Virus record (IMG/VR): IMGVR_UViG_3300024284_000007
Coordinates: 1-64,000 of that record
Source: a virus
Lineage: Duplodnaviria; Caudoviricetes
Strand: one strand, 5' to 3'
DNA: 64,000 bases
The position numbers and the translations under genes are program-made. The notes below the pieces were generated by a model. That model ran no database searches and was not told where the DNA came from. It saw nothing but the letters and a program-made list of their open reading frames with translations. Positions 19,562-54,340 of the stretch are shown in pieces. The number at the start of each line of letters is the position of its first letter. Position 1 is the first letter of the stretch.

Positions 19562-19566
19562 CTGAT

Positions 19567-20137: not shown

Positions 20138-20140
20138 CGA

Positions 20141-20211: not shown

Positions 20212-20217
20212 GGTAAT

Positions 20218-20288: not shown

Positions 20289-20450
20289 CGAGGGTTTGCT
20301 GGACGGCATGACCCTACTATGATGCGCATGAAATGATCGGTGCCCGGGAAGAGGACAAGGCCGAACCCGTGCACAGGCTGCGGATGCTGCGCCGTCCCGG
20401 CAGTCCATCTTGAGGAACAGTGATCCCGTATTCGCGTACGGGATCACCTA

Positions 20451-20524
20451 GGTCACTTAGCTCAGCTGGCAAGAGCGCCCGGTTGAAGCCCGGGAGGTCT
20501 TCTGTTCGATTCAGAAAGTGATCA
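20451..20524 (+). tRNA. tRNA-Phe(GAA)
   Basis: Canonical cloverleaf. Confidence 0.92.
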
Positions 20525-20543
20525 CGGCACTATCCCTCTTCAT

Positions 20544-20615
20544 GCGGGTATGGTCTAATGGCTATGACCTCAGCCTTCCAAGCTGATGGTGCGAGTTCGA
20601 TTCTCGCTACCCGTT
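20544..20615 (+). tRNA. tRNA-Gly(TCC)
   Basis: Canonical, U73. Confidence 0.92.
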
Positions 20616-20768
20616 CGCAGTAAGAAAGGATTGCCGTGAAATTCTCACGATGCAAGACTTGCAAGAGGCTGATATCCCGGAAAACCGCCCAGCGCTATTC
20701 CGGGATATGCGGTAAATGCTTCAGGAAAAGTATCTCTTCTCTCGCGAGAAAAATGATTGGTTGACTAT

Positions 20769-20840
20769 CAGGCTGTAGTTCAGCGGGAAGAACGTCGGCT
20801 CGGGGAGCCGGAGGTCGCAGGTTCGAGCCCTGCCAGCTTG
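20769..20840 (+). tRNA. tRNA-Pro-type gene with a 6-nt anticodon loop (TCGGGA)
   Basis: CAGGCTG/CAGCTTG, A73, TCGGC/GCCGG stem. Confidence 0.65.
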
Positions 20841-21023
20841 ACGTGAGAACATGCGTGCACTGCAAGCGCAGCCGCTTCCGGCGGCTGATGGTCCGGTCTA
20901 GCCTGTCCGGGAGCAAGTGGCGCTGCAGGAACGTGCAGGCTTGCGCCAGGTACATAACAAGGAAAAAATAGCAATCCGAGGAGATCATCATGCGAAAGCG
21001 GAACCAGCCCCGAAAGCCTTAAT

Positions 21024-21095
21024 GCTCCGGTAGCTCAGTGGCAGAGCGGCTGGCTCTTAACCAGCGCGTCGCGAGTCCGATTCTCGCTCGGAGTA
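21024..21095 (+). tRNA. tRNA-Lys(CTT)
   Basis: GCTGG-CTCTTAA-CCAGC. Confidence 0.92.
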
Positions 21096-21207
21096 CGAAG
21101 GAAGAATGATGGCTGTATGCCCTAACTGCGGCGGTACCAAGAAACCCGGCAAGACCTGCCCGAGATGCGGAGCAAATCATGAGTAAACCGGACCTGCTTA
21201 AAGGCAG

Positions 21208-21279
21208 GCTCCCCTAGCATAGTGGCCATGCGTTCGACTTTTAATCGAAAAGAGCGGGGTTCGATTCCCCGGGGGAGTA
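21208..21279 (+). tRNA. tRNA-Lys(TTT)
   Basis: TTCGA-CTTTTAA-TCGAA. Confidence 0.9.
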
Positions 21280-21436
21280 CAGTAAGCGAATGCCGGAAAT
21301 AATGTGCCCGAAATGCAAGGGAACGAAGAGATACCGGGGACGCCCGTGCAAGAAGTGCTCGCCGAAGGATAAGGACGGGAAGATCACCGGTCTCCCGCTC
21401 GGAAAGATCTGGGTAGACATGGGCAGCGGAAGCTAA

Positions 21437-21511
21437 GGGCGTCTACGCCAACAGGCAGCAGCGGCTAGCTTCAAAAGCTAGTGGTTCAGGGTTCGAATCC
21501 CTGGTCGCCTA
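21437..21511 (+). tRNA. tRNA-Leu(CAA), short variable region
   Basis: CTAGC-TTCAAAA-GCTAG, A73. Confidence 0.8.
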
Positions 21512-21524
21512 CGGAAGTAAATGA

Positions 21525-21597
21525 TCTCGGGTGGGATGCGGGCATCCCAGCATGGCTCTGAACCATGCCCCCGTTGGTTCGAATCCAGCCCCGAGAG
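21525..21597 (+). tRNA. tRNA-Gln(CTG)
   Basis: U1-A72, G73, CATGG-CTCTGAA-CCATG. Confidence 0.88.
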
Positions 21598-21631
21598 CGA
21601 TCCCAGCTTGCCGGAAGCTAGCTGGGCTCAT

Positions 21632-21700
21632 GCCTGTCGCGTCGGCACGCATCTGTCCCTCGTAGCGACAGATCACCCGGATCGTCCCCGGGGACGGGCT
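21632..21700 (+). tRNA. tRNA-Thr(CGT) with non-canonical cloverleaf
   Basis: GCCTGTC/GACGGGC, U73; GCGT-CGGC-ACGC; ATCTGTCC-CTCGTAG-CGACAGAT; CCCGG-ATCGTCC-CCGGG. Confidence 0.75.
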
Positions 21701-21711
21701 CGGAAGGGAGA

Positions 21712-21993
21712 ATGATGGATACACGCGAACTGATCCTGAAGACCGTGGAGGACCTGGCTGAGGACTTCCTCGGGATAGACCGCCTGGAAGACGCCGAGCT
21801 GCCTCCTGGGGCGACCGAGCGGGCGGTCCTGGACTGGGAGACCAGCATCGGGGAGATTGCTCTCCGGTTTGAGCAGAAGCTCCGCGAGCTGATCCCCGTA
21901 CCCGTCGATGAGCCTGGTGCCCACGTCGGGCAGGCTGGTCATGTCGTCCGCGCGAAGAGGATCCATGCCCAGGTGGAGCAGATGCAGGGATAG
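21712..21993 (+). CDS. Hypothetical protein
   Basis: GGAG RBS; fills the gap between tRNAs. Confidence 0.6.
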   Translation: MMDTRELILKTVEDLAEDFLGIDRLEDAELPPGATERAVLDWETSIGEIALRFEQKLRELIPVPVDEPGAHVGQAGHVVRAKRIHAQVEQMQG

Positions 21994-22000
21994 GTTTCAT

Positions 22001-22074
22001 GCCCAGGTAGCCCAACGGCAGGAGGCACCACCTTGAGGAGGTGGGCAGTACGAGTTCGAATCTCGTTCTGGGTA
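22001..22074 (+). tRNA. tRNA-Leu(GAG), short variable region
   Basis: CCACC-TTGAGGA-GGTGG, A73. Confidence 0.85.
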
Positions 22075-22079
22075 CGGAA

Positions 22080-22146
22080 CGCCGGGAACGCAGCCACGGC
22101 TGGCGTGGTCGGCAGACGATCAGGGTTCGAGTCCTGATCCCGGCGG
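22080..22146 (+). ncRNA. tRNA-like element of unclear identity
   Basis: 8-bp CGCCGGGA/TCCCGGCG stem, T-arm with GTTCGAGT, no canonical anticodon arm. Confidence 0.5.
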
Positions 22147-22150
22147 GAGC

Positions 22151-22218
22151 GCCGCTACTCACGGCTGTGGCTCCGGTCTTGTACACCGGGTGAGACGGGT
22201 CGGCACCGTCTGGCGGCT
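22151..22218 (+). tRNA. tRNA-Thr(TGT), minimal D-arm, T-loop GTCGGCA
   Basis: GCCGCTA/TGGCGGC, CCGGT-CTTGTAC-ACCGG. Confidence 0.75.
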
Positions 22219-22361
22219 CGGGAGGAAGGAAGAAAGATGACGCTCATTTTCACCCTGAAATGCTGCGCTCCTCGCGGAGAGCCGTGCCGCTGCGCTAATC
22301 CGTGCCGCAGAGGACGATTCGGACGCCGCTGCAGGTGTCCCGGATGTCATTAGAGTTTCAT

Positions 22362-22433
22362 TGCGGGGTGGGGTAACGGCAGCCCGCGTGCCTTTGAAGC
22401 ACTGTAGTGCGCGTCCGAATCGCGCCCCCGCAG
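22362..22433 (+). tRNA. tRNA-Gln(TTG)
   Basis: U1-A72, G73, loop CTTTGAA. Confidence 0.85.
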
Positions 22434-22651
22434 CAGGTTGTCTCAAGTGAACGGGAAGGTACATGCCACGGCACGGAGGAAACACGCTGCGCCCTTGCAG
22501 GCGGCATCACAAGAAGATGTCGTCAGGCTCTAAAGGCAACGGCGGGGACGCCAAGATCCGCAAGGCGAAGCAGGTCGCCGGGGAGGCGGCTCACCCCAAG
22601 CCCCGGAAGAAGAACGGCAAGGAAGAGTTCGAGCCTACGTGAGCAGGTCAT

Positions 22652-22720
22652 GCCCTTCGGACCGGCGTCCACGCCTCCTTGGTATGGAGGCGTAGCCCGG
22701 ATCGTCCCCGGGGAAGGGCT
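22652..22720 (+). tRNA. tRNA-Thr(GGT) with non-canonical cloverleaf
   Basis: GCCCTTC/GAAGGGC, U73; GGAC-CGGC-GTCC; ACGCCTCC-TTGGTAT-GGAGGCGT; CCCGG-ATCGTCC-CCGGG. Confidence 0.8.
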
Positions 22721-22804
22721 CAAGAGATGCCGGTCATCCATCTCCTTACCGCGAGTCACCAGGTAGCCAGTCCTGTTCAGGCGTCCAGCGGGTATGATGA
22801 CCAT

Positions 22805-22877
22805 GTGACCGTGGTGTCAGCGGTTAGCATCTGACCTTGCCAAGGTCAGGGGGCGAGTTCGAGTCTCGTCGGTCACT
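22805..22877 (+). tRNA. tRNA-Gly(GCC)
   Basis: TGACC-TTGCCAA-GGTCA. Confidence 0.9.
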
Positions 22878-23002
22878 CTAGCTAGTAGCCCAGCATGAAG
22901 CTTATGGCGACATGCCCCTGAGGGGAAGCGCGGACTGCTAGCCTAGGCGGGACAACACCGGGCGTCGGCGCACCCACAAAGCCGTCCGCTGGTGTCCCTC
23001 AT

Positions 23003-23073
23003 GCGGCTATGGTGTAGAGGTAACATGCGATCTTCCCAAGCTCGTGTCGCGGGTCCGATTCCCGCTAGCCGCT
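23003..23073 (+). tRNA. tRNA-Gly(CCC)
   Basis: Loop TTCCCAA, U73. Confidence 0.88.
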
Positions 23074-23222
23074 CGGAGATGTGCACGATCTCCCGGGAAA
23101 GCTCAGCGCAATACCAGGCAGTCGATTGCGGCAGCCCACTCGCCTGTGAGCGTGCTGAAGTGAAAAGGAATGGGAGCTGTCGTCGCTATTCCCGGAAGCG
23201 GAAGTCAGGGATTTCCCGTCAT

Positions 23223-23307
23223 GCGCGGGTGGTGTAACGGTAGCCACGCACGGCTCAGACCCGTGTGGTCCGGAAGGATCGTGAGGGTTCAACTCCCTCC
23301 TCGCGTA
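23223..23307 (+). tRNA. tRNA-Leu(CAG), long variable arm
   Basis: CACGG-CTCAGAC-CCGTG. Confidence 0.9.
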
Positions 23308-23308
23308 C

Positions 23309-23704
23309 GTGGATAACGTCAAGCAGGTCATCGTCATCAGGAGAGACCTGAAAATGCGCAGGGGCAAGGAGATTGCCCAGGGTGCTCACGCTTCGATCGC
23401 CTGGCTGACTAACAGGATCACGAATTCTTCCAATGCTCTCATGTCGGTTACGCCAGCGGATTTCTCTGCAGCGGAATGGGAATGGCTTCGGGGGAATTTC
23501 CGCAAGATCTGCTGCGTTGTCAGTTCCGAGCAGGAGCTGCTCGACCTGTGTGATGCAGCGAAGGAAGCGGATCTGATCTATGAGCTGATCGAGGACTCTG
23601 GACTGACTGAGTTCAGCGGGGTTCCCACGTTCACCGCAGCGGCATTCGGTCCTGACTTCGATGAGAACCTGGATCCCATTACGGGTCATCTGGTACTCTA
23701 CTGA
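23309..23704 (+). CDS. pth2: Peptidyl-tRNA hydrolase, Pth2 family
   Basis: KQVIVIRRDLKMRRGKEIAQGAHAS...KIC.VV...L...I.DSGLTEF..PT.TA.AFGP...D.ITGHL.LY. Confidence 0.92.
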   Translation: MDNVKQVIVIRRDLKMRRGKEIAQGAHASIAWLTNRITNSSNALMSVTPADFSAAEWEWLRGNFRKICCVVSSEQELLDLCDAAKEADLIYELIEDSGLTEFSGVPTFTAAAFGPDFDENLDPITGHLVLY

Positions 23705-23793
23705 CATGCTCCAAGAAGAAGTCGGCAGGGCGTCGCTGGCGTGACCCTGCTAGTCCGGGCGGATAATAAGTCCTGGGGTAGAGCGCCAGCAAT

Positions 23794-23877
23794 GGAGAGT
23801 GAACGAGCCAGGGTGCTCGGCCTTCCTGCTAAGAAGTGCGCGGGTGATACCGTGGATTTCGAGTATCCCGCTCTCCT
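23794..23877 (+). tRNA. tRNA-Ser(GCT)
   Basis: GGAGAGT/GCTCTCC, loop CTGCTAA, long variable arm. Confidence 0.75.
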
Positions 23878-23878
23878 C

Positions 23879-24223
23879 ATGGCTAAGGAACTCGCGTTCT
23901 CGGTAACCCGCAAGGACCTGAAGATCGAGACTTTTTCTGCGGGCGGACCGGGAGGACAGCATCAGAACACCTCCAACACGGCGGTGCGCATCACGCACCT
24001 CGCGTCAGGGGCGTCAGGAGTGGCGAGAGACTCCCGCAGCCAGCATCAGAACATGAAGAACGCCCTGCGCCGCATGGCGGAATCGGGTAAGTTCAGGGTG
24101 TGGGTGAACCGGCAGCTGCTGGGGAATACCGAGCCGCCGGAGATTGCTGTACAGCGGCAGATGCACCCCTCGAACCTGCTGATCATGGGCAGGGAGGAGG
24201 GGAGATGGAAGATCATCGACTAG
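23879..24223 (+). CDS. Class I release-factor GGQ-domain protein (ArfB/PrfH-like, domain 3 only)
   Basis: IETFSAGGPGGQHQNTSNTAVRITHLASG...DSRSQHQN. Confidence 0.88.
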   Translation: MAKELAFSVTRKDLKIETFSAGGPGGQHQNTSNTAVRITHLASGASGVARDSRSQHQNMKNALRRMAESGKFRVWVNRQLLGNTEPPEIAVQRQMHPSNLLIMGREEGRWKIID

Positions 24224-24232
24224 GAAGAGACG

Positions 24233-24659
24233 ATGAAGAGATTCATGAAAGCAGGACCTCATCCTGCCGTGGGGATCCCGGTCATGACCCTCTGCGGGAT
24301 CGGGGGGATCCTGGAGCTGAGCGACAAGGGTCATTTCACCTTGTTCGGCAAGGTCATCCAGTCGCATGACGCCGCTGTCTTCGCGGTCATCGCCAGCGCC
24401 GGGTACCTTCTGCTGGAGCTGGTCTTGCTAGCCAGGAGGCACTGACATGGGGTGGCTTGCCTTCCTGGTCGTAAGCTCTGTCGCGGTCTTCGCGCTGATG
24501 AAATACGCGGGCAGCAATCGCAGGGCGGCGAAAGTGATCAAGGGGAAAGGGCGCTCATCTCCCCGGATCTGCCCTGACTGTCGCGAGCCGGCGGGCAAAT
24601 GCCAGTACCTGCGCCGTCAGGCTGAGCACCCTGGGGGCATGCTCGGGAAGAAGAAGTAA
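24233..24659 (+). CDS. Two small membrane proteins (24233..24445, 24447..24659)
   Basis: Hydrophobic segments; RBS present. Confidence 0.55.
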
Positions 24660-24664
24660 CTCAC

Positions 24665-24751
24665 GGAGAGTTCGCCTAGAGGCTTAGGGCGCTGCCTTGG
24701 AAAGGCAGTAAGGTGAAATATCCTTCACGAGTTCGAATCTCGTACTCTCCT
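24665..24751 (+). tRNA. tRNA-Ser(GGA)
   Basis: CTGCC-TTGGAAA-GGCAG, long variable arm. Confidence 0.88.
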
Positions 24752-24790
24752 CCGGGGATTAAGCCAGTCAGGGAGCTGGCATCCCCTTCT

Positions 24791-24872
24791 CGGGAGCATG
24801 CTACCGGCGTAGCGCTCCGCCTCGAAAGCGGATACGGGGTAACACCCGGGGGATCGACACCTCTGCTCTCGG
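24791..24872 (+). tRNA. tRNA-Ser(CGA), reduced D-arm, T-loop ATCGACA
   Basis: TCCGC-CTCGAAA-GCGGA, variable arm, G73. Confidence 0.72.
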
Positions 24873-24893
24873 CGCAGAATAGAAAGAAGGAAC

Positions 24894-25136
24894 ATGCCCG
24901 ACAGGAAGAAATGCCCGGCCTGCGGAACGATGATGCACCGGTTCATGAACCCTGAGCGGTATGTCTGCCCTAAAGAGAACACTCACGCAGCTCTTCTCGC
25001 CGAGAAGAGAAGGGCTGAAGGGCGTTCCCGGGGCGGAAAAGCCGCTCAGGCTAAGCGAGCTGCGTCTGGTCGCCAGCGGGAATGGGCGCGGATACTCGGG
25101 AAGAGATTCGGGGGGAAGAACAAGAAGAGCAAGTAA
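24894..25136 (+). CDS. Small basic Zn-ribbon protein
   Basis: CPACG...YVCP; RBS AAGGA. Confidence 0.55.
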   Translation: MPDRKKCPACGTMMHRFMNPERYVCPKENTHAALLAEKRRAEGRSRGGKAAQAKRAASGRQREWARILGKRFGGKNKKSK

Positions 25137-25142
25137 CATCAT

Positions 25143-25216
25143 GGGCATCAGTTCACCTGGTCGGTGGACTCACGCTGATAACGTGATCGCGCAGGGTTCG
25201 ATTCCCTGGGTGCCTA
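25143..25216 (+). tRNA. tRNA-Ile(GAT)
   Basis: TCACG-CTGATAA-CGTGA. Confidence 0.85.
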
Positions 25217-25217
25217 C

Positions 25218-25290
25218 GCCGCAGTAGCCTAACGGTCAGGGCAACTGTCTTATGAACAGCAGATTCCAGGTTCAAGTCCTGGCTGCGGTA
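25218..25290 (+). tRNA. tRNA with UAU anticodon (nominal Ile) on a Leu-like body
   Basis: Loop CTTATGA (G37), GCCGCAG/CTGCGGT, A73, D-region GCCTAACGGTCAGGGC. Confidence 0.75.
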
Positions 25291-25415
25291 CGGGAGGTAT
25301 CATGCTGACAGGAAGCTGGAATCCTCACGACGAGGATGACGAGAATCTCGTGCTGGATGTCGAGTGGGTCTTCATTCGCGGAGGAAAGTACGTTTACTCG
25401 GTGAGAGCCGAGAAT

Positions 25416-25489
25416 GCCCCTGTAGCTTAAAGGACAAAGCGGCTGGCTTCTATCCGGTCCAGATCCGGGTTCGAATCCTGGCAGGGGTG
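25416..25489 (+). tRNA. tRNA-Arg(TCT)
   Basis: Loop CTTCTAT, canonical arms. Confidence 0.85.
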
Positions 25490-25490
25490 C

Positions 25491-25562
25491 GCTCCATTGG
25501 GGAAACGGTATCCCGCCAGCCCCTCAAGCTGGAGATCCCCGGGTCGGCACCGGGATGGAGCA
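25491..25562 (+). tRNA. tRNA-Glu(CTC), T-loop GTCGGCA
   Basis: CCAGC-CCCTCAA-GCTGG. Confidence 0.75.
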
Positions 25563-25724
25563 CGGAGAAAAGATGAGAGAAAGAATGTCCAGCCAGTGTA
25601 CCGCTGCCCCAAAGGCGGTCTTCATCACTGGAAGCGCACTATCACGATTACCGCGATCCTGCGCCTGCGCATCTTCCACGCGCGGTGCACGAAATGCGGC
25701 GGGTATCCTCAGAAGAGGTAACAT

Positions 25725-25796
25725 GCTCTCATCGTCTATGGGATAGGATCTGATCCTTTCAAGATCGGGAACGGAGTTCGAGTCTCCGTGGGAGCA
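25725..25796 (+). tRNA. tRNA-Glu(TTC)
   Basis: TGATC-CTTTCAA-GATCG. Confidence 0.88.
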
Positions 25797-25811
25797 CGGG
25801 AAGGGAAGAAG

Positions 25812-26012
25812 ATGCCGCTCAGCGAGGATGAGCAGGATGCCATGGCAGCCAACTGCCCCTGGTGCTGGGCGGGGATGGGTGAGCGCTGCAAGAGCCGCAG
25901 CGGGAAAGAGCGCCTGCACCCGCATAAACGGCGGATCGCGCGCGCGCGGCGGCGCGGAGGTCTCGGCGGGGTGGGCAGGATGCTGCTGGCGGCGAGAAGG
26001 GGAAGCAAGTGA
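25812..26012 (+). CDS. Small phage zinc-finger protein
   Basis: CPWCWAGMGERC.....H..R. Confidence 0.6.
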   Translation: MPLSEDEQDAMAANCPWCWAGMGERCKSRSGKERLHPHKRRIARARRRGGLGGVGRMLLAARRGSK

Positions 26013-26028
26013 GTAACGGGAAATTCTA

Positions 26029-26065
26029 GCCTGCATGGTGAACTGGCTATCACATCATGTGATAA
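26029..26065 (+). pseudogene. Orphan tRNA 5' half
   Basis: GCCTGCA-TG-GTGA ACTGGCTA TCAC-A-TCATG..., no T-arm or 3' acceptor strand. Confidence 0.45.
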
Positions 26066-26074
26066 ACTAGTCGT

Positions 26075-26147
26075 GGCGACTAAGCTCACTGGTGTGAGCG
26101 GCACCCTCATAAAGTGCACGAGGTGGGTCCGATTCCCGCAGTCGCTA
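26075..26147 (+). tRNA. tRNA-Met/Ile2(CAT), elongator type
   Basis: GCACC-CTCATAA-AGTGC. Confidence 0.85.
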
Positions 26148-26148
26148 C

Positions 26149-26580
26149 GTGGGGAAACCGTATGATCCTGAATATTACCGAAAGTGGCAAGAGGAACGCC
26201 GCATTAAGTTCCTGGCGATAGCTAAAGAACGCCTTGGAGGATGCTGTGTTCGTTGTGGTACTACCGAAAATCTTCAGTTCGATCATATTATTCCAGGTTC
26301 CAGGATTCGTGCGATATCATCAGCAACTAATTGGTCGCTAGCTCGCTTTCTTGCCGAAGTGGACAAATGTCAGCTTCTTTGCGATGCGCATCATCGTGAA
26401 AAATCAAAGGAATGCGGAGAGCAAGGCGGAGGCTGGAATCGTATCGATAACCCAGAACACGGAACAGAGATTTGCTATACACGTGGGTGTCGTTGCGAAC
26501 CATGTCGTCAAGCCCGGCACGACGTGCGGGTAAGACGAGGTGAACTCAATGGCACGCGAGGACATTACAAAAAATCTTGA
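26149..26580 (+). CDS. HNH endonuclease (tRNA-array paralog 1)
   Basis: LGGCCVRCG...LQFDHI.P...EVDKCQLLC..HH; low GC. Confidence 0.88.
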   Translation: MGKPYDPEYYRKWQEERRIKFLAIAKERLGGCCVRCGTTENLQFDHIIPGSRIRAISSATNWSLARFLAEVDKCQLLCDAHHREKSKECGEQGGGWNRIDNPEHGTEICYTRGCRCEPCRQARHDVRVRRGELNGTRGHYKKS

Positions 26581-26606
26581 CATCTCCTCTTCGGAGGAGG
26601 TAAGGT
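26577..26606 (+). promoter_or_regulatory. sigma70-type promoter
   Basis: TTGACA-18-TAAGGT just upstream of tRNA-fMet. Confidence 0.75.
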
Positions 26607-26617
26607 AGATCTACCGA

Positions 26618-26691
26618 CGCGGAGTAGAGCAGCTTGGCAGCTCGGTGGGCTCATAACCCTCAGGTCGCGGGTTCGAATCCCGTCTCCGCTA
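26618..26691 (+). tRNA. Initiator tRNA-fMet(CAT)
   Basis: C1:U72 mismatch, GGG/CCC anticodon-stem pairs. Confidence 0.92.
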
Positions 26692-26721
26692 CCGGTCCCG
26701 ACAGGACCCTAAAGAGTCTAT

Positions 26722-26794
26722 TGGCCTCTAGCTTAACTGGCAGAGTCGCTCCCTGTTAAGGAGTTAGGTCCCGGTTCGAATCCGGGGGGGTCAG
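26722..26794 (+). tRNA. tRNA-Asn(GTT)
   Basis: U1-A72, G73, GCTCC-CTGTTAA-GGAGT. Confidence 0.88.
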
Positions 26795-26919
26795 CGGGAT
26801 GCAGGTGCACGCGATAAACTGGCTTACCTGCGCCTGGCAGATCAGCGCCCTACCCAGGGGGTGCCTCAGACGGAGACAGCGGGTCACGTACGTCCCAGTC
26901 CCCGCCGAGCTGATCACGT

Positions 26920-26975
26920 GGTTCTGTAGCTTAGCTGGTCTAAAGCACCGCCCTGTCAAGGCGGAGGTCAACGGG
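26920..26975 (+). pseudogene. Truncated tRNA-Asp(GTC): T-arm and 3' acceptor strand lost, directly upstream of an HNH gene
   Basis: Intact D-arm and CCGCC-CTGTCAA-GGCGG, then sequence diverges. Confidence 0.75.
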
Positions 26976-26991
26976 CTGATAAGATGACCGG

Positions 26992-27408
26992 GTGCCTTAC
27001 AGGGATCCTGATCGCCAGCGCGAGTATCAACGTCAGTGGGTAGCTAGTCGGCGTGCTGCATGGTTCAAGGATAAATCTTGCGTGATATGCGGGAGTGCCG
27101 AAGATTTGGAACTGGATCATCTTGATCCGGGCAAGAAAGTAAGCCATCGCATCTGGTCATGGTCAGCAACGCGACGCGAAGCTGAACTGCTTAAATGCAG
27201 GGTTCTTTGCGGTAGTCACCATAAAGAAAAATCTGCACTGGAGCATGCAAAAGGTATCGCGAACGGGACGGCGAAGCTAACTGAAGAGCAAGTCCGAGAA
27301 ATTCGTTCTTCAGGAATGGGTCACCGACCCGCCGCTAGGGTGTATGATGTAAATGAAAAAACCATCCGGTTGATCCGGAAGGGTAAAATCTGGGGTTCCG
27401 TGGTGTAA
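26992..27408 (+). CDS. HNH endonuclease (paralog 2) with C-terminal HTH-like tail
   Basis: CVICGS...LELDHLDP...ELLKCRVLC..HH, AKLTEEQVREIR; last codons overlap tRNA-Asp. Confidence 0.88.
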   Translation: MPYRDPDRQREYQRQWVASRRAAWFKDKSCVICGSAEDLELDHLDPGKKVSHRIWSWSATRREAELLKCRVLCGSHHKEKSALEHAKGIANGTAKLTEEQVREIRSSGMGHRPAARVYDVNEKTIRLIRKGKIWGSVV

Positions 27409-27466
27409 AGGTTAGCACACTACCCTGTCAAGGTAGAGGTGGGGGTTCGACTTCCCCTCGGTTCCG
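27394..27466 (+). tRNA. tRNA-Asp(GTC)
   Basis: CTACC-CTGTCAA-GGTAG; two U:U mismatches in the acceptor stem. Confidence 0.8.
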
Positions 27467-27568
27467 CTGGAGGCGTTCATGTGACGCTCATGTGGTACGA
27501 GATGCCGGAGACTGGCATCCTTCCCCGGGGGGTATCCTGGAGGGAGCTGGCGGATCACTGGCTGACCC

Positions 27569-27953
27569 ATGATCCGCTTCCGGAAAGAAGAGATGATGAT
27601 AAGCATGTGCGGGTCGAGTGTCCCGCTGTGGGAATTCCTGGCAGGGATACTGTGCGGACTGGTACTCTCGGTAACCCTGATACGCCTGTTCAAGCTGTAC
27701 GGGCTCCTGATCTGCCTGCTTATCATCATCGCGGGAGCTATCATTGTTAAGACAGCATTCATCAGGTACGGATGCTGACATGTCATTCGACGGGCAGGAC
27801 TATCCCTGGCTCCACCTGTGGATGCTGTCAGCAGTGCCGCTGGTGACATTCGCGGCAGGGGCGCTGTCCTGTAAGATCCTGGGGAAGTGGACCTGGCTGC
27901 TCATCGGGCTGGGAGTCCTGCTGCTGGTCATCCTGCGGGCAGCTGGAGGGTAG
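27569..27953 (+). CDS. Two small two-TM proteins (about 27569..27778 and 27780..27953)
   Basis: Strongly hydrophobic ORFs; starts uncertain. Confidence 0.55.
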
Positions 27954-28067
27954 ATGGCGATAAACAGGAAGTGCCTGGCATGCAGGTGGAACAGCCGCCT
28001 GCTGCGCTGCAGCTGCACCTACCGGTGCTCTGCGCTATGGTGCAAGGGCAGGGGAGTGAAAATATAG

Positions 28068-28140
28068 GGACGCTTAGCTCAGCGGTATGAGCGCTGCCCT
28101 GACACGGCAGAGGGCGGCGGTTCGATCCCGTCAGCGTTCA
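28068..28140 (+). tRNA. tRNA-Val(GAC)
   Basis: CTGCC-CTGACAC-GGCAG. Confidence 0.92.
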
Positions 28141-28143
28141 CTC

Positions 28144-28377
28144 GGCTGGAAGAAAAGGCTGCTAGCGAGCCGGATCTTCCCGCGCCGGGGATAGAGACCC
28201 GGCTCCGGCGGCAGACGTGCCGTGCGTTCCATGAGCACATGGGCAGCTGGACCAAGGGGATGAATGGTTCGACCGGGCTGCAAGACCGCATGCGGAACAG
28301 CCCGGGACCAGGGCTCGGTACCCTGCATCTCCACTGCCGGGGGTTAAGCGGCGCAAGCCTCAAACCCCCGGCGTCCA
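28144..28377 (+). ncRNA. Unassigned highly structured RNA between tRNA-Val and tRNA-Arg
   Basis: Nested perfect stems (CCGGGCTG/CAGCCCGG, GCCGGGGGTT/AACCCCCGGC, GCCGGA/TCCGGC, GGGGATG/CATCTCC) and a GCAA tetraloop. Confidence 0.55.
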
Positions 28378-28449
28378 GCCCCCATGGTGAAAGGGATATC
28401 ATGGGAGATTACGAATCTCCCGGTGCCTGTTCGAGTCAGGCTGGGGGTG
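28378..28449 (+). tRNA. tRNA-Arg(ACG)
   Basis: GGAGA-TTACGAA-TCTCC. Confidence 0.88.
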
Positions 28450-28463
28450 CGGAAAGGAAGAGA

Positions 28464-28670
28464 ATGAAGGCACTGAAGCCGCGTCCGGCAAAACGCGGGT
28501 ACGTCATCATCGGGGGACTGTCAGTACTGGCGGTGTGGGCATGCACGCAGGCTCTCCACGTCACTCCGCTGGTAGCCCTGGTCATCGTCGTCGCGGGCAT
28601 AATCCTGCTCGCGGGAGCATTCTCCCTGCGTTCCCGGGGAATTAACCGGGAGGTGAAACGCAGGAGATAA
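28464..28670 (+). CDS. Small two-TM protein
   Basis: MKALKPRPAKRGYVIIGGLSVLAVW...; RBS AAGGAAG. Confidence 0.55.
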   Translation: MKALKPRPAKRGYVIIGGLSVLAVWACTQALHVTPLVALVIVVAGIILLAGAFSLRSRGINREVKRRR

Positions 28671-28741
28671 GGGCGGCTCGTCCAATGGGAGGGCCTCTGC
28701 GTTACGAGCAGAAGACAAGGGTTCGATTCCTTTGCCGCCTA
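28671..28741 (+). tRNA. tRNA-Val(TAC)
   Basis: TCTGC-GTTACGA-GCAGA. Confidence 0.85.
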
Positions 28742-28742
28742 C

Positions 28743-28896
28743 GGGAATGAGAGAGGGTACGGCAGGGCTACTCAGGGAGTCCGGGTGCGTGCCATCCAGA
28801 GGAGTCCGAAGACGGCAGGACGGTTCCTGAGTCTGTCCTGCTTGCTTGACGGATCGCTCTCACCGAGCCCAGGGTCGTGGGCAGCTCTCATTCTCC
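28743..28896 (+). ncRNA. Unassigned structured RNA between tRNA-Val and tRNA-His
   Basis: Closing stem GAATGAGAG/CTCTCATTC and inner ACTCAGGGA/TTCCTGAGT, GTCC/GGAC, GGGTG/CATCC. Confidence 0.5.
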
Positions 28897-28898
28897 AT

Positions 28899-28973
28899 GG
28901 CGGATATAGCTCAATGGCAGAGCGCTGGCTTGTGGTGCCGGTAATCCGAGTTCAATCCTCGGTATTCGCCCCA
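28899..28973 (+). tRNA. tRNA-His(GTG)
   Basis: G-1:C73, loop TTGTGGT, encoded CCA. Confidence 0.92.
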
Positions 28974-29221
28974 CGCGATCATCCGGAAAGGGTATCATGA
29001 AGATATTCAGGCGCAGGAAGAAGCGCAGTCAGGTGAAATGCTTCATCTGCCATACTCGTACGCCCCCAGAGGGCGCAGCTGTCTGCGCGCACTGCCTGAA
29101 GCACAATATCAGGATGAGGAGTACGCAATGAGAAGTTATTATCCGGGTCAGCATAGCTGTCACTGACCCTGCCGGATCTTGCACTGGGATGCTTTGTGGT
29201 AAGGTATGATATAGTAAAACT

Positions 29222-29818
29222 ATGAACTATACCGCAGAGCAGATGCGAGAGTACCAGAACCGGAGGCGTGAAGCTCTTCGCGCCGAATTGCGCCTGTTGC
29301 TCGGCGGGAAATGTGCTCGTTGTGGCAAGACTGAGGATCTTGAATTTGATCATATAGATCCAAAAACAAAACTTTTCTCGATAGCAAATGGACTGGATAA
29401 GCCGCGTGCTGTTCTTTTGCAAGAAGTGGAAAAATGCCAGCTTCTTTGCACGCCTCACCATATCGAGAAAAACTCCGAAGATGGAACACGTGTCCGAGGA
29501 GAACGACAGTGGAAAGCAAAGCTCACTGTTGCCGATGTCCAGAGTATCAGGGCATCAACTCTTCATTATCGCGAACTGATGAAAATTTATGATATTACCA
29601 AGGCTCATGTATTCGCTATTCGCAGACGTGCGGCTTGGAAGCATGTAGACTTATCCTTGCCAGGGTACTCAAGCGGCCAACGAGATCTGACTGTAAATCA
29701 GATGGCATCGTCCTTCCTAGGTTCGACTCCTAGTCCTGGTACATGTATAACACAGCAAATAAATACGAATTCCCCAATAACACCGAAGTCTGGACCTATG
29801 AGATCATTGCCTATATGA
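29222..29818 (+). CDS. HNH endonuclease (paralog 3); domain ends at WKHVD, then TTA (29651-29653), and the ORF runs on through tRNA-Tyr
   Basis: LGGKCARCG...LEFDHIDP...EVEKCQLLC..HH, AKLTVADV..IR...WKHV. Confidence 0.85.
   Translation: MNYTAEQMREYQNRRREALRAELRLLLGGKCARCGKTEDLEFDHIDPKTKLFSIANGLDKPRAVLLQEVEKCQLLCTPHHIEKNSEDGTRVRGERQWKAKLTVADVQSIRASTLHYRELMKIYDITKAHVFAIRRRAAWKHVDLSLPGYSSGQRDLTVNQMASSFLGSTPSPGTCITQQINTNSPITPKSGPMRSLPI
29659..29741 (+). tRNA. tRNA-Tyr(GTA)
   Basis: TCTGA-CTGTAAA-TCAGA, variable arm. Confidence 0.92.
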
Positions 29819-29973
29819 TCACCGAAGGTAAGACTAGAGCTAGCGTCACTCTCGGATTCTATGGTGAATTGCGCGCTTCCGGAACTGGTGCAATCGTCGG
29901 GAAAGATGTTGGCGATACTGAGCAGCAGGTGATCCTCAAGCTTATCGGTACTGAGGATATCCAAAAGCTCTAA
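29743..29973 (+). CDS. Hypothetical low-GC protein
   Basis: 76-aa ORF. Confidence 0.5.
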   Translation: MYNTANKYEFPNNTEVWTYEIIAYMITEGKTRASVTLGFYGELRASGTGAIVGKDVGDTEQQVILKLIGTEDIQKL

Positions 29974-29985
29974 GGGGAACGTGCA

Positions 29986-30014
29986 GCAGGTTCGATTCCT
30001 GCATCCGGTACCCA
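29986..30014 (+). pseudogene. Orphan tRNA 3' half (T-arm plus acceptor strand)
   Basis: GCAGG TTCGATT CCTGC-ATCCGGT-A-CCCA with no D or anticodon arm upstream. Confidence 0.6.
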
Positions 30015-30299
30015 TTCGCCGATTAAGGACCGACATGAAGACCATTGCCATTCTCCCTTCCGAATGCCATACGATGATGCTCGGCATGCGGCTGTGCGTG
30101 GTATGCTGCCATGCATGCCGGAGGGGATTCCGGTGCGACTGCTGCAGGAGGATGAGAGAAGATGCTTAACGAGCTAGCCGCGACAGGGCATTCCGCCGGG
30201 TTCACTATCGGCGCGATAGTGCTCGGGGCGATCTGCGTCATCATCATCGTGGTGCTGCTGGTCATGACCCGCAAGCGGCGCGGGAAGAAATAAAGTAAT

Positions 30300-30369
30300 G
30301 CCCCCGGTAGCGGATTCTTCCACTGGGTTTCCGAAATCCGGATGCCGTGTTCGACTCACGGCGGGGGTG
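30300..30369 (+). tRNA. tRNA-Arg(CCG), degenerate D-arm
   Basis: GCCCCCG/CGGGGGT, loop TTCCGAA. Confidence 0.7.
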
Positions 30370-30375
30370 CTATGT

Positions 30376-30450
30376 GACGCTGTGGCGAAGATGGCATAAC
30401 GTGCACGTCTGCAAAACGTGTATTCGCGGGTTCGAGTCCCGCCAGCGTCT
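30376..30450 (+). tRNA. tRNA-Cys(GCA)
   Basis: CACGT-CTGCAAA-ACGTG, U73. Confidence 0.92.
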
Positions 30451-30471
30451 CTGATTTCCGGTCTGTTTCAA

Positions 30472-49087: not shown

Positions 49088-50458
49088 TTAGTAAGTCGGC
49101 GTGCCGTTCACCAGCGTGACCGTGCCCGGCCCGAGTCCTCCGGAACCGCCGATGTCCGCGCTGTTCGCGACACCCTCGAACGAGTTCCCGTAGCCGATCA
49201 GGACCTTGTTCCGCATGATCTTGGACTTCACGTTCGCCACCTGGTTCGCGTTGAAGGTGAGCGTGAACGGAGTTCCCGAGTTGGGGATGTTCGCGTTGGT
49301 GATGGAGATGCTCATCGGTGCCTGGGCGTTGAGGAGCATCAGGTCCAGCGGGGTCTCCGAGTTAGTCGGGTCCCACTGGATCGTGCCGTCCATGGTCAAT
49401 GGACCCCTGGCGATGACATAGGGAGTCTGCGTTCCCGCGACCAGCCAGTAAACCTGCGTCTGGCGCTTGAAGGAGACATTGAACTCCCCGATTCCCGCGT
49501 AGCTGCCGGAACTGGAGATGGTATTCCCGGCGACGACAACCGTTGATGCCCAGTTGGGAATGGGGCGGCTGTTGGTGGTCGTGTTGGTGACCGCCTGCGT
49601 CGCCACGGTGGACTGCCAGGAATCGCCGGACATCTTGATTCCCAGGAGCTGCTCGGCGTTCCCGGAGAAGTCAAGGCTCTTCAGTACGGCGCTGGGATAC
49701 TGCCGGGCTCCGAACGTGTTCGTCGGGGCAGTGCCGTATGTCGCCGAGGTGAATACATTGACGATGTTGGTCACGTCGGTGAAAGTGTGCGTCGGCGGCT
49801 GAGCGCCGAATGCGCCGCCGTATCCCAGCTGCGAGTTCAGCGCCGCGAAACGGTGCGTGAACTGCGTTCCGGTCGCCAGGTTAGCGAGCGTGGAACCCGC
49901 GATCGTGGACCCGCTGATTACCGAGGGATGCGGGAAGCGGAGCGGTGTACTGGCGAAGTTGACGACGTTGCTCGCGGCGGTAGAGGAGATCTGGATGACC
50001 TCATTCACGTATGACCCGGGAGTCACGGCAGTGGTCGCCGTGCCGATCTGGAGATATGCGCCTGCTGTATATCCGGCGGGAGGCGCGGCGCTCAGCGTCA
50101 TCGCGATAGCGCCGATTCCCAGGGTTCCCGTAATTGTCGAAGGAGTCCCGATCGCGCTGCAGGTAGTGGACAGGTCTCCGAATACGTTATCGAAGAAGTA
50201 CCCGTGACTGTCGAGGAAGTTAGGTCCCCCGAAGGAAAAGGACGCGGATTCAACGCCGAGGGTCTTGTAGAACAAGTCCGTCATGCTTCCCCTGATTGCC
50301 TTGTCGTCAAGGAATTTCGGGGTGTCCTCGGGCTCGAACTGCGACTGATCGAGGGGATGGGTAATAACAGGGTTGACTACCGTACCGACTGTCAGCTCGC
50401 GGGCAATTCCGAGCCAGGACAGTACGCCCGGGTAGATGTTGGGGCCACCGAGTGCCAC
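49088..50458 (-). CDS. Major tail tube protein
   Basis: Position; LGIARE..GT, HTFT, beta-rich, internal insert. Confidence 0.8.
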   Translation of the reverse strand: MALGGPNIYPGVLSWLGIARELTVGTVVNPVITHPLDQSQFEPEDTPKFLDDKAIRGSMTDLFYKTLGVESASFSFGGPNFLDSHGYFFDNVFGDLSTTCSAIGTPSTITGTLGIGAIAMTLSAAPPAGYTAGAYLQIGTATTAVTPGSYVNEVIQISSTAASNVVNFASTPLRFPHPSVISGSTIAGSTLANLATGTQFTHRFAALNSQLGYGGAFGAQPPTHTFTDVTNIVNVFTSATYGTAPTNTFGARQYPSAVLKSLDFSGNAEQLLGIKMSGDSWQSTVATQAVTNTTTNSRPIPNWASTVVVAGNTISSSGSYAGIGEFNVSFKRQTQVYWLVAGTQTPYVIARGPLTMDGTIQWDPTNSETPLDLMLLNAQAPMSISITNANIPNSGTPFTLTFNANQVANVKSKIMRNKVLIGYGNSFEGVANSADIGGSGGLGPGTVTLVNGTPTY

Positions 50459-51285: not shown

Positions 51286-52276
51286 CTAGATCGTGCGCTT
51301 GTACGGATGGCAGAGCAGTTCCGCCTCCGTGGTGAGCCCTACGACGTCGCCGCCAGTGCTCTGGGAGTGACCGCCGATGTCGTGGATGGTGGTCGTGGTG
51401 GCACCCCTGGTCAGCGCCTCGGCGGTGGCGAAGTGGATGCACGCCTGCTCAATACTGGCGGGCAGGGTGGTGATGATCGTGCCCGCCACGTGCGGGTAGA
51501 CCAGCGGCGCGGACAGGCTCAGGGTCCCCGGTCCCGCCGCCGCCGACGCGGAGTTCGCGTGGACGGTCTCCTGCTGTCCGGAGTCCTTGATCACCCCGGT
51601 AGCCCCCGTGGTGCCCTGGTAGCTGGTGATGCCCCAGCCGGTGACGTCGCTGACGGACAGGGTGGTCGCGCCAGCGAGAGCGCTGGAGGTGATCTCCGCG
51701 TGCGGGAAGCCGTTGATGTAGCTCACCTGGATGACATAGCCGTTGCGCCCGAAGCACCAGTTGATGAATCCCGGTCCGATGATGATCGCCTGCCCGCCGT
51801 AGGCGTCGGTGGCAGGCGCGACCGAGTTGAAGATCCCGAACGGGGGGTACTCCGGCTCCGCCCATCCCGTGGGCAAGGTGGTCCACTGCCGGGGCCACGT
51901 GTTGTTGGGGCACACCTGGACCTGGGTGACTTCCAGGATGGGGAAGCGGGAGAGGATAGCCCTGGCATTGGACCCGGTATTGTTCCAGTAGGGCGTGCGG
52001 GTCGCTCCGCCTGCGCCCGGTCCGACCGTCACCCGGAAATCCGGACCCCGGAGCACCTCGATATCGACGGTGGCTCTCAGGATCTGGTTGCAATAGCTAT
52101 CGACCTTGGCAGTGGCTCTCGCGCACATGTTCCACCACTCGGCTTCGTTCTGCGCGGGAGTGATGTCATCTCCTACGGGAATGCTGGTCCAGTCCTAAAT
52201 CGATACCCGTAGGAGCAGTCAGGAGCGTCACCGGGGAAATGTACGGTGCTGTGATCAGCGGCATCGGGGTAGTCAT
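51286..52276 (-). CDS. Head-tail adaptor, interrupted by a 7-nt coding gap after codon 26 (GAT TTA G GAC)
   Basis: RBS GGAGG and ATGA-coupled start at 52276 give MTTPMPLITAPYISPVTLLTAPTGID; the other frame continues DWTSIP...MCARATAKVDSYCNQ.LRAT.D.E. Confidence 0.75.
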
Positions 52277-52473
52277 CGGGCATCACCTCCCCTCTTTCTC
52301 TCGCATTTGGTGCAGATCCACGCCTCAAGCGCACTGTCCCATACGGAATGCCTCGGGCAGATGTCATCACCGCAAGTGTCCACGGCGCACTGAGCCCACG
52401 GAGCAGCAGTCCTGGCGACACGTCCCCTCTTGGGACCTCCACACCTTCTACAGAGGCCAGGTGCTCTTGACAT
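52273..52473 (-). CDS. Small Cys-rich (Zn-binding) protein
   Basis: CRRC, C....C...IC..H, CTKC. Confidence 0.55.
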   Translation of the reverse strand: MSRAPGLCRRCGGPKRGRVARTAAPWAQCAVDTCGDDICPRHSVWDSALEAWICTKCERKRGGDAR

Positions 52474-52483
52474 GCACCACCTC

Positions 52484-52870
52484 TTAGCTTTTTTCCAGGT
52501 ATGCAGCAAGAGCCCGCAACCTGTCCGGATCGTCGTGAGCCCATCCCAGAAGCCTATTGCAGGTATTGCACAAGATGCCCCTGACGCAGTTCTCACATCC
52601 AAATCTTCCAGGGCAGCAAGAATGATCATGGTCCACGCAGAGCTTTTCAAAAGAACCGCAGACTTGACAGCCTTGCGACGCTGCGTACCCACGCCAGTAG
52701 GCTCTGGTCTTACCGGCGTGGGTTCTCGCATTATCGTGAGGGCGCGTAGCTTCAAGGTAAATCTCATGCGCAGCGCAGCATTCTTCGCATCGGCAGCCAC
52801 GCTTCTTGTATGTAGCGTTCTTGCCGTGACTCCAGACGCCGTTTTTGCAGCCTTCCCGGTGATTGCTCAT
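52484..52870 (-). CDS. Endonuclease VII family (free-standing)
   Basis: CQVCG...LCVDHDH.CC...C..CVRGILC..CNRLLG..DD. Confidence 0.88.
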   Translation of the reverse strand: MSNHREGCKNGVWSHGKNATYKKRGCRCEECCAAHEIYLEATRPHDNARTHAGKTRAYWRGYAASQGCQVCGSFEKLCVDHDHSCCPGRFGCENCVRGILCNTCNRLLGWAHDDPDRLRALAAYLEKS

Positions 52871-52926: not shown

Positions 52927-53304
52927 CTACGTCTTGTACTCGTAATCCGCGAGGGTGTCCTGGGAAACGGGGGTGAATGTCACTCTCGGAGGCCAGCTCC
53001 ACTGACCTTCCTCATCACCCTCATGCCGGGAAGTCGCCCAGAACAGGTCATTGCCGTCGAGGTGGACCTGGAGGTTAACGACGTCATGCGGGTTTCCCGG
53101 GAATATCCTGACGACTATCGCGGGATAAACCTCACCCGGGCGAACGGGATTCCCGAAATGCCCGACGTGACCGGTAGCCCCGGGATTGCCGCCCTCGCCG
53201 TAAGTGCGGGTGAAAGTCATGTAGTCATGACGCCTGCGGTTGATGTCCTGGGCGTCAGCCTCTGCGATCCGGTACTGGACGATGCGTCCTGCCGTGGGAG
53301 TCAT
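52927..53304 (-). CDS. Hypothetical protein
   Basis: PTAGRIVQY...PAIVVR...VNLQVHLDG...WSWPPR. Confidence 0.6.
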   Translation of the reverse strand: MTPTAGRIVQYRIAEADAQDINRRRHDYMTFTRTYGEGGNPGATGHVGHFGNPVRPGEVYPAIVVRIFPGNPHDVVNLQVHLDGNDLFWATSRHEGDEEGQWSWPPRVTFTPVSQDTLADYEYKT

Positions 53305-54002
53305 ACTGCCACCGGAGTAGTCTCCAGGCGCTCGATGAGCGCGGCTTTGCTGCCCTTGTCGGAGATGCCCGCCGTACGGCACATCTTCTTCAGGGTGGCG
53401 ACATGAAGCGCCGTCAGCGAGATAACGCTGTCGTGACCCGGCTCGAACGGGATACTGTCCGCCGGAGCTGTCCCTATTTCCTTCTGCTTCGCCATGGAGA
53501 TGCCGCACTCAGCGCAGAACTTGGCTCCGGCGGCGTTGTCGTGACCGGTGGCGCAGACGGTCTTGCCCTCGATGAAATGAGAGGGAAGCTCGCGCTTCAT
53601 CATCCACTCGGTCTCGAAGGGGATCTCGGTGCCCGCCGCCCGCAGCGCTGCCAGCGCCTGGATCATCTGGATCTGGTGGGTGGCACGCTCGGTGCGGACC
53701 GCGTTCGTGGCCTGCTCGTCGGGGGTCAGCGGGATGGACTCGGGAGTGGAGGACCAGTGCGGGTCCGCATCGGCGACGCGCTCCTGCTTGGCGGGGATGC
53801 CGAGCTTGGGGTCGCCCGGGGTGGTCTTGAGGATCTGCGGCTTGCGGGCTCCCCGGAGGTAAGCCTCGCAAGAAGGGCAGTCCAGCTCCCAGTCTTTCGC
53901 GGGAGCGCCTCTCACTACGGGTCGGCTGTGCGAGTCGCCGCAGCCTCCGCTCGTGGAGGGAATGGATACGCTCATGAGGTCAGAGCGTGCGTACAGGGGC
54001 AT
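53301..54002 (-). CDS. Zn-ribbon plus SAP-domain protein
   Basis: CATGHDN...KFCAECG; LHVATLKKMC...GIS..GSKAALIERL. Confidence 0.65.
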   Translation of the reverse strand: MPLYARSDLMSVSIPSTSGGCGDSHSRPVVRGAPAKDWELDCPSCEAYLRGARKPQILKTTPGDPKLGIPAKQERVADADPHWSSTPESIPLTPDEQATNAVRTERATHQIQMIQALAALRAAGTEIPFETEWMMKRELPSHFIEGKTVCATGHDNAAGAKFCAECGISMAKQKEIGTAPADSIPFEPGHDSVISLTALHVATLKKMCRTAGISDKGSKAALIERLETTPVAV

Positions 54003-54013
54003 TGGCAGTCCTT

Positions 54014-54340
54014 TCAGGGAACATATTGCCCGCTCGGTCGTTCGCGGGACATCTGGGATTCCGGGACGGTCTCCGACCCGCAAGAAGGGCAGGTTCTCGT
54101 CCAGGAATGGTGGATGGTATTGCTCGGGCAGTCCGGGCACCATCTTCCTTCAGGTCCTCTTCTCACGAAATGCTTCTCCGGTCCGGCATCGACAAGTCCT
54201 GCCTGGGCGTAGTTGTTGCCCTTCAGCGCCGCCATGTGATGATCGGCGACATCCACGAACGTTCCCGGCTTGGCGACATAGCGGGTCCCGTCATCCGCCT
54301 TGAATCCCATGCAGCCAGGGGGGAGGTTCACTCTGGTCAT
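54014..54340 (-). CDS. Hypothetical protein with C-terminal Zn ribbon
   Basis: CPDC...CPSC. Confidence 0.6.
   Translation of the reverse strand: MTRVNLPPGCMGFKADDGTRYVAKPGTFVDVADHHMAALKGNNYAQAGLVDAGPEKHFVRRGPEGRWCPDCPSNTIHHSWTRTCPSCGSETVPESQMSRERPSGQYVP

Follow-up and report, generated by a model that had tools for sequence, protein, structure and literature searches.

A UUA-led gap in the putative head–tail adaptor gene of an uncultured soil phage: a probable short translational bypass at the 3′ edge of a proposed homing-endonuclease cassette

The adaptor locus

The window, that is, the whole stretch of DNA analysed here (64,000 nucleotides), belongs to an 87 kb metagenome assembly deposited as an IMG/VR virus record. 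The contig derives from an uncultured soil phage and is 71% complete according to CheckV. The gene of interest, a putative head–tail adaptor gene, is encoded on the minus strand, and its reading frame is broken after 26 codons. The features at the break are as follows:

52199–52276, minus strand: adaptor segment 1, from the ATG to the take-off codon, 26 codons, frame 0
52199–52201, minus strand: take-off codon GAT (Asp), in the P site at the proposed stall
52195–52198, minus strand: gap TTAG, proposed to be untranslated, consisting of TTA 52198–52196 (proposed A site) and G 52195
52192–52194, minus strand: landing codon GAC (Asp), 7 nt 3′ of the take-off codon
51286–52191, minus strand: adaptor segment 2, from TGG to the stop, 301 codons plus TAG, +1 frame
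52166–52168, minus strand: TGA stop of frame 0, at which normal decoding of TTA would end, giving a 36-aa product

A first-pass annotation of this DNA, made from the sequence alone, had proposed a UUA-triggered bypass at this position, and all of its coordinates and sequence statements on the break are correct to the base. The start codon (ATG 52276–52274) overlaps the TGA of the upstream ORF as ATGA and is preceded by the GGAGG Shine-Dalgarno sequence that was claimed for it. Directly after GAC follows TGG (52191–52189); counted from GAC, the long frame comprises 302 codons and ends at 51286. Simple read-in is barred, again as claimed, by a TAG (52197–52195) immediately 5′ of GAC in the downstream frame, where the first start codon is ATG 52128. 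Joining the two segments gives a protein of 327 aa with the junction T-G-I-D-W. This peptide, which the annotation had predicted from the removal of 7 nt, is contiguous in nearly all aligned homologues (>500), relative to which the window gene possesses seven extra bases; segment 1 is colinear with their residues 1–26.

Local signals were sought around the gap. RNA folding gave a mean z of −0.54 for interrupted and −0.21 for intact genes (p = 0.10), and neither a conserved RNA structure nor an internal Shine-Dalgarno-like stimulator near the gap was detected across the interrupted genes. An 8-bp inverted repeat (CCTACGGG / CCCGTAGG) flanks the window site; it is absent from the relatives and was treated as chance. 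Transcriptional slippage at the gap was rejected, there being no homopolymer run.

Identity of the gene

The metagenomic homologues of the adaptor are mostly 323–331 aa long and are colinear with it over the whole of the joined protein. Searches of Pfam and PHROGs with the adaptor gave no match, and Foldseek against the PDB with the structural model returned nothing at E ≤ 0.001. The model was made with AlphaFold (AF2) from an intact relative 95% identical to the window adaptor (pLDDT 80, pTM 0.79). The fold assignment rests on VIA-align, with Z values that are moderate: 8.8 for the GTA adaptor (6tba), the neck of phage 812 (8q01) and Mycofy1 (9lw9), 8.4 for the Mu neck (5ydn) and 7.6 for HK97 gp6 (3jvo; 88/96 residues aligned). 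In the model two β-barrel domains are inserted between the N- and C-terminal helices, and it is these helices that match phage neck adaptors; those at the N-terminus, which align with gp6-type adaptors, comprise residues about 10–60. The only relatives in cultured phages, at about 25% identity, are annotated as head–tail adaptors. Fold and annotation both support the identity proposed in the first pass, and with moderate strength point to an HK97 gp6-like head–tail adaptor (neck) of the virion module. Distant prophage relatives were found in assemblies of Streptomyces, Streptosporangiaceae and Catenulispora.

A natural series of gaps

About 180 related loci were gathered from viral, metagenome and genome contigs, and 110 unique full-length genes were counted. 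Interruptions are present in 37 of these (34%), all within the motif A-P-T-G-I-D-W, which is otherwise free of indels in 103 intact loci. TTA is the first gap codon in 35 of the interrupted genes; in the remaining two, L245 and L248, it is TAG. Once the gap is taken out, the consensus motif is restored exactly in every case. The moves from take-off to landing measure 5, 7, 8, 10, 11, 15, 16 or 26 nt, so that all frames are covered. One locus, L264, has an in-frame gap holding a stop; the same is true of L249 and L237, which are shortened loci outside the 110.

The codon before the gap specifies Thr (ACA, ACU, once ACC), Gly (GGU), Ile (AUU, AUA) or Asp (GAU). Apart from the single ACC, these take-off codons are minor synonyms ending in U or A: within the family GAT accounts for 26% of Asp codons, GGT for 12% of Gly, ACT and ACA for 9% and 6% of Thr, and ATT for 14% of Ile. 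The Asp-type gaps of the relatives nevertheless use GAT every time, and their landing codon is GAC or GGC. Landing triplets mostly end in C. In 22 of 29 gap types the triplet agrees with a cognate codon at positions 2 and 3, against some 3.5 expected from composition; with G·U pairs allowed the figure rises to 26/29. Mismatches at position 1 are frequent (GCC for Thr, CUC for Ile, CGC or AGC for Gly).

On the tree of the family there are at least 22 gains or losses of the interruption and at least 35 changes of gap type, and near-identical genes bear different gaps. A mobile mini-element of fixed sequence was rejected as the source, since the gap sequences vary. When the DNA pattern P-T-G-I-D(GAT)-L(TTA) was sought in viral contigs the hits were mostly chance, with 2 of >80 loci relevant among the matches listed.

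Several loci depart from the common design. L237 (352–480) carries 12 extra nt in frame, with TAG at their end and no TTA among them, and in L239 (1530–1650) a TTA-led break lies one codon after the motif Trp. Two shortened loci, L003 (1500–1620) and L219 (1530–1600), have in-frame 9-nt TTA inserts without a stop, encoding D-L-P-D-W and D-L-P-G-W, respectively; here normal decoding and a 9-nt hop would both give a full-length protein, the two products being three residues apart. The longest gaps, of 26 nt, occur in L233 and L245. Near-identical 327-aa LAGLIDADG genes accompany both, and the first gap codon is TTA in the former and TAG in the latter, the total length being equal.

Conservation of the break

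Whether relatives keep a TTA-containing gap at this junction was one of the checks named in the first pass. The identical 10-base core is present in L001, L002/L059, L041 and L232, all from other samples, with 71–81% protein identity to the window adaptor (L001 81%, L002 71%). Codons around this core differ at many synonymous sites in L001 and L002, and L004 possesses TTAA where the window has TTAG. Among the interrupted genes pS is 0.65–0.74 versus a pN of 0.24–0.33, on both sides of the gap; for the 22 codons from the gap to Met 52128 the values are 0.74 and 0.24. This Met is replaced by Ile in L041 and L223. Taken together, the comparisons point with high confidence to a conserved recoding site.

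TTA usage and tRNA supply

Elsewhere in the family genes in-frame TTA occurs three times in 32,687 codons (0.09 per 1000), and the other two frames of these genes hold 142 and 135 TTA trinucleotides. Among the high-GC3 ORFs of the contig TTA is used 8 times in 17,580 codons. Other contig ORFs ending in TTA (78134, 12379, 51044, 57609, 75087) were considered and discarded as spurious ORFs or 5′ over-extensions.

The contig carries 35 phage tRNAs, among which tRNA-Leu(UAA) is absent. An array of 34 genes occupies window positions 19491–30451 on the plus strand and includes Leu(CAA), Leu(GAG), Leu(CAG), Asp(GUC), Thr(GGU) and Gly(GCC/UCC/CCC); the 35th, a tRNA-Lys, lies at contig positions 80284–80361. 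One tRNA-Asp(GUC) reads both GAU and GAC, as the first pass had stated, and a gene for it is present in the phage:

27394–27467, plus strand: phage tRNA-Asp(GUC), the candidate hopping tRNA

Within the tRNA island are also genes for a PTH2 peptidyl-tRNA hydrolase (window 23318–23701, plus strand, E 3e-27) and an RF-1/GGQ-domain protein (window 23894–24082, plus strand, E 3e-19). These proteins could perhaps handle UUA-stalled ribosomes or dropped peptidyl-tRNA.

A second gapped gene

Just past the end of the window, two further features of the contig are found:

L287:630–937 (G000:C1 64630–64937), minus strand: small virion-module gene with a TTA-led gap
L287:974–1642, plus strand: Endo VII-type homing endonuclease gene, about 40 nt from the start of the second gapped gene

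In this gene TAC is followed by TTA (gap TT), and a move of 5 nt leads to the landing codon AAC. When joined, its two parts give a product of 100 aa that aligns colinearly with more than 100 homologues encoded in a single ORF, and the junction is free of indels.

Homing endonucleases and the gap

Between near-identical genes of the family, nucleotide identity breaks exactly at the gap, as three comparisons illustrate:

L214 (intact) vs L233 (26-nt gap and LAGLIDADG gene): 100% after the gap, 70% over the first 63 nt, 55% upstream
L246 vs L254 (different gaps): 100% after the gap, 73% over the first 63 nt, 57% upstream
Window vs L006: 96% after the gap, 71% over the first 63 nt, 91% upstream

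L006 is otherwise 95% identical to the window. The first 63 nt of the window gene are 92% identical to L001, the remainder of that gene being about 75% identical. The high identity of segment 1 to L001, set against 71% to L006, suggests that this segment is part of a transferred patch.

At 13 of 33 interrupted and at 2 of 75 intact unique loci the gene immediately upstream encodes an endonuclease (Fisher p 2e-6); at 19 of the 33 interrupted loci there is no such gene nearby. Phylogenetically independent pairs gave four to six cases in the same direction versus none or one in the opposite (median p 0.125), a comparison that is underpowered. The upstream enzymes belong to LAGLIDADG_3 (L028, L254 and L075 above the Pfam cut-off) or to an HNH-like family of 144–156 aa. 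HNH genes are associated with gaps at Asp codons, LAGLIDADG genes with gaps at Thr, Gly or Ile codons. In the window the region upstream of the adaptor contains:

52277–52292, minus strand: cassette 5′ motif with a consensus Shine-Dalgarno sequence, equal to the last codons of the relatives' HNH ORFs
52273–52473, minus strand: small Cys-rich (zinc-ribbon-like) ORF, which by tblastn adjoins the adaptor in about 90 loci
52484–52870, minus strand: Endonuclease VII-type free-standing homing endonuclease gene (Pfam PF02945, E 8.6e-14)

The 5′ motif is common to all Asp-type interrupted loci and missing from the intact ones. The HNH ORFs of L041 and L223 end in it, and L036 retains about 45 nt of that ORF as a remnant; the last five codons of the small Cys-rich ORF in the window derive from this motif. 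Since the motif is the end of an HNH ORF in relatives, the window appears to carry an HNH-type cassette without its nuclease gene. The Endo VII gene is situated two ORFs upstream of the adaptor, at a position that is empty in L001 and occupied in L006; window and L006 both have this gene, yet the gap is present in only one of them.

In our model the gap owes its existence to its position as the 3′ terminus of a homing-endonuclease cassette. The cassette would consist of the endonuclease gene, the recoded first ~26 codons of the adaptor and the gap, and would spread by gene conversion. In the window only the last codons of the HNH gene, the recoded N-terminus and the gap would remain, the rest of that gene having been lost. 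The gap would presumably protect the allele that carries it from cleavage. The comparative data point to such a cassette boundary as the reason for the gap.

A different reason for its maintenance, close to what the first pass had inferred, would be that the hop is real and the gap serves mainly to sense tRNA-Leu(UAA) in the host, in the manner of growth-phase control by bldA, the endonuclease link being incidental. This is the model proposed for the phiHau3 terminase (PMC10732093); it is congruent with the interrupted loci that have no endonuclease gene nearby, and with the presence of gaps in at least two virion-module genes of the contig. Against it speak the identity breakpoints that fall exactly at the gap, the correspondence of gap type and endonuclease type, and the very fast turnover of gaps, and we regard it as possible but rather unlikely. 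A sensor role and a cassette role are compatible and do not exclude one another.

Decoding of the gap

Under the bypass model the ribosome would start at ATG 52276 and read 26 codons, whereupon peptidyl-tRNA-Asp on GAU would pause with the nearly unused UUA in the A site. The tRNA-Asp would leave GAU, with which it pairs by G·U wobble, the mRNA would move by 7 nt, and the anticodon would re-pair with GAC. UGG would be read next, giving the 327-aa adaptor with the junction typical of the family, while ribosomes that decode UUA as Leu would terminate 10 codons later. As a general rule for the family, a slow or undecodable UUA or UAG would occupy the A site and a weakly paired peptidyl-tRNA would re-pair a few bases downstream. 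Moves in three frames, together with in-frame gaps that hold a stop, are more than one frameshift rule can explain. The hop from GAU to GAC set off by UUA, as put forward in the first pass, is in our view the best unifying mechanism over the ~30 natural gap variants; we infer the hop itself, and its efficiency, from sequence comparison. The 2-nt repeats at take-off and landing could alternatively, at least in part, be microhomology left by the insertion event. We consider it probable that a short programmed bypass operates here and that the gap originated in a homing-endonuclease cassette.

The first-pass annotation had also offered a +1 shift after UUA. In a programmed +1 frameshift of this kind UUA would be read as Leu, the G skipped and GAC UGG read next, giving T-G-I-D-L-D-W. 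Such a shift fits the window, where its product would be only two residues longer, as well as every gap of 7 or 10 nt. TTA is mostly followed by a purine, with which tRNA-Leu(UAA) could re-pair at the wobble position, and the in-frame inserts of L003 and L219 suggest that extra residues, if translated, may be tolerated at this point. It is not general, however, as the relatives need +2, in-frame or stop-spanning moves: it fails for moves of 5, 8, 11 and 26 nt (+2 frame), for the in-frame gaps holding stops in L249, L264 and L237, and for UAG in the A site (L245, L248). Re-pairing from UUA to UAG has a central mismatch, and GAU also re-pairs poorly with AUU. In frame 0 the codon that follows UUA is by no means always a rare one (GGA, AGA, GGG, AUC, AUG), and a hungry codon at that position as the driver of the shift was rejected because it is AUC or AUG in some relatives. 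The lack of other indels in the motif among intact loci also speaks against the shift, and mass spectrometry of the phiHau3 product showed bypass, not frameshift (PMC10732093). The +1 frameshifts of the prfB or Ty type, which go in a single direction from a re-pairing P-site codon, do not resemble what is seen in the adaptor family. Altogether, a +1 shift seems improbable.

Translation with no recoding at all would yield a 280-aa adaptor from Met 52128, or two polypeptides, the 36-codon upstream ORF being independent or dead. Gene callers do annotate the relatives' proteins P0017, P0051, P0061, P0075 and P0099 in this way (278–282 aa). The 22 codons between gap and Met contain no start codon, yet they are conserved in frame, and purifying selection on both sides of the gap, together with the replacement of that Met by Ile in two relatives, argues against initiation there. 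The modelled N-terminal helices, which align with gp6-type adaptors, also speak against it. This reading is very improbable. Although the contig is an incomplete metagenome assembly, an indel from assembly or sequencing is scarcely credible, and so is a dead gene of a defective phage, as the identical core recurs in independent assemblies with diverged flanks, a third of the family is interrupted and under purifying selection on both sides of the gap, and a second gene of the contig has the same design.

Comparison with known bypass systems

To our knowledge, translational bypass has so far rested on very few cases, namely T4 gene 60, the byps of yeast mitochondria and three terminases of the phiHau3 type. 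For the last of these the proposal has "languished" for a decade.

The precedent cited in the first pass is real: bypass of UUA is known from the large terminase of phiHau3 and of two Streptomyces prophages (Smith et al. 2013; PMC10732093). UUA-led gaps of 7 or 10 nt were reported in 3/100 terminase genes (Antonov et al. 2023, PMC10732093), mass spectrometry identified a junction peptide in E. coli, where UUA had been changed to UAA, and regulation dependent on tRNA-Leu(UAA) was proposed (PMC10732093). The adaptor shares with this terminase a short, frame-breaking, UUA-led insert in an essential late gene, the flanks of which are adjacent in intact homologues. As in this actinophage, UUA is otherwise avoided, the ribosome is proposed to take off when UUA occupies the A site and to land a few bases further on, and the take-off codon GAU and landing codon GAC share a tRNA. 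The differences are equally clear. The genes affected here are an adaptor and a second small virion-module gene in uncultured, tRNA-rich soil phages of about 130 kb; the prevalence is 34% in place of 3/100; and there are some 30 gap variants of 5–26 nt, at five neighbouring codons. The link to homing endonucleases is undescribed for phiHau3, whereas the 5′ stem-loop or Shine-Dalgarno stimulator was not detected in the adaptor family.

The 50-nt bypass of T4 gene 60 is carried by the MobA element (Bonocora et al. 2011, in bioRxiv 10.1101/2022.08.31.505936). The order of parts is alike (the endonuclease upstream, a recoded target region, then the gap at the 3′ end of the element), the nuclease is often lost while the gap stays, and different endonuclease families occupy one site. 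Gene 60 has a 50-nt gap, a take-off hairpin, UAG after GGA and a nascent-peptide signal, whereas the adaptor gap measures 5–26 nt. The two have no sequence homology, and folding gave no hairpin signal in the adaptor family; the A-site codon of the adaptor is a rare sense codon and that of T4 a stop, and the adaptor is not split in two. The adaptor gap would work like the T4 gene 60 family without being a member of it.

The byp elements in the mitochondria of Magnusiomyces capitatus (Lang et al. 2014, cited in PMC10732093) are also numerous short untranslated inserts, whose take-off and landing codons match and in which the codon following take-off cannot be decoded. They differ from the adaptor gaps in measuring 27–55 nt, in being mitochondrial and scattered over many genes, and in having no endonuclease cassette.

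Origin and spread of UUA-led gaps

What is new here is the view of the gap as the 3′ edge of a mobile cassette, which ties short UUA gaps to homing endonucleases. This link offers a reason at the DNA level for the existence of UUA gaps and joins the phiHau3 and T4 mobA stories. On balance, and with some reserve, we favour the wider reading that, in soil phages of high GC content, short UUA-led gaps provide homing-endonuclease cassettes with both immunity and a boundary. Inserts of 5–26 nt would repeatedly arise or be imported when nucleases attack essential virion genes in their conserved 5′ part, and only the hoppable ones would survive, because a near-undecodable codon follows the take-off codon. 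If this is true, bypass would be common, affecting a third of the adaptor family and several genes per genome, and the series of variants would reveal the pairing rules, with a weak NNU or NNA codon at take-off and positions 2 and 3 deciding at landing.

The adaptor family provides about 30 natural variants of one site together with intact controls. The rules it suggests are testable: UUA or UAG in the A site, a take-off codon ending in U or A, a landing triplet matching at positions 2 and 3, and gaps of 5 to 26 nt in any frame. For annotation the consequence is that, at present, one in three of these essential genes is entered as truncated or split.

Neighbouring genes

On the 3′ side of the adaptor module a 456-aa ORF (window 49088–50458, minus strand) has nothing in Pfam and a weak PHROG match to a family of unknown function. 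A SAP-domain protein with a zinc-ribbon-like stretch is encoded at window positions 53301–54143 (minus strand) and is a member of the neighbourhood in nearly all relatives.
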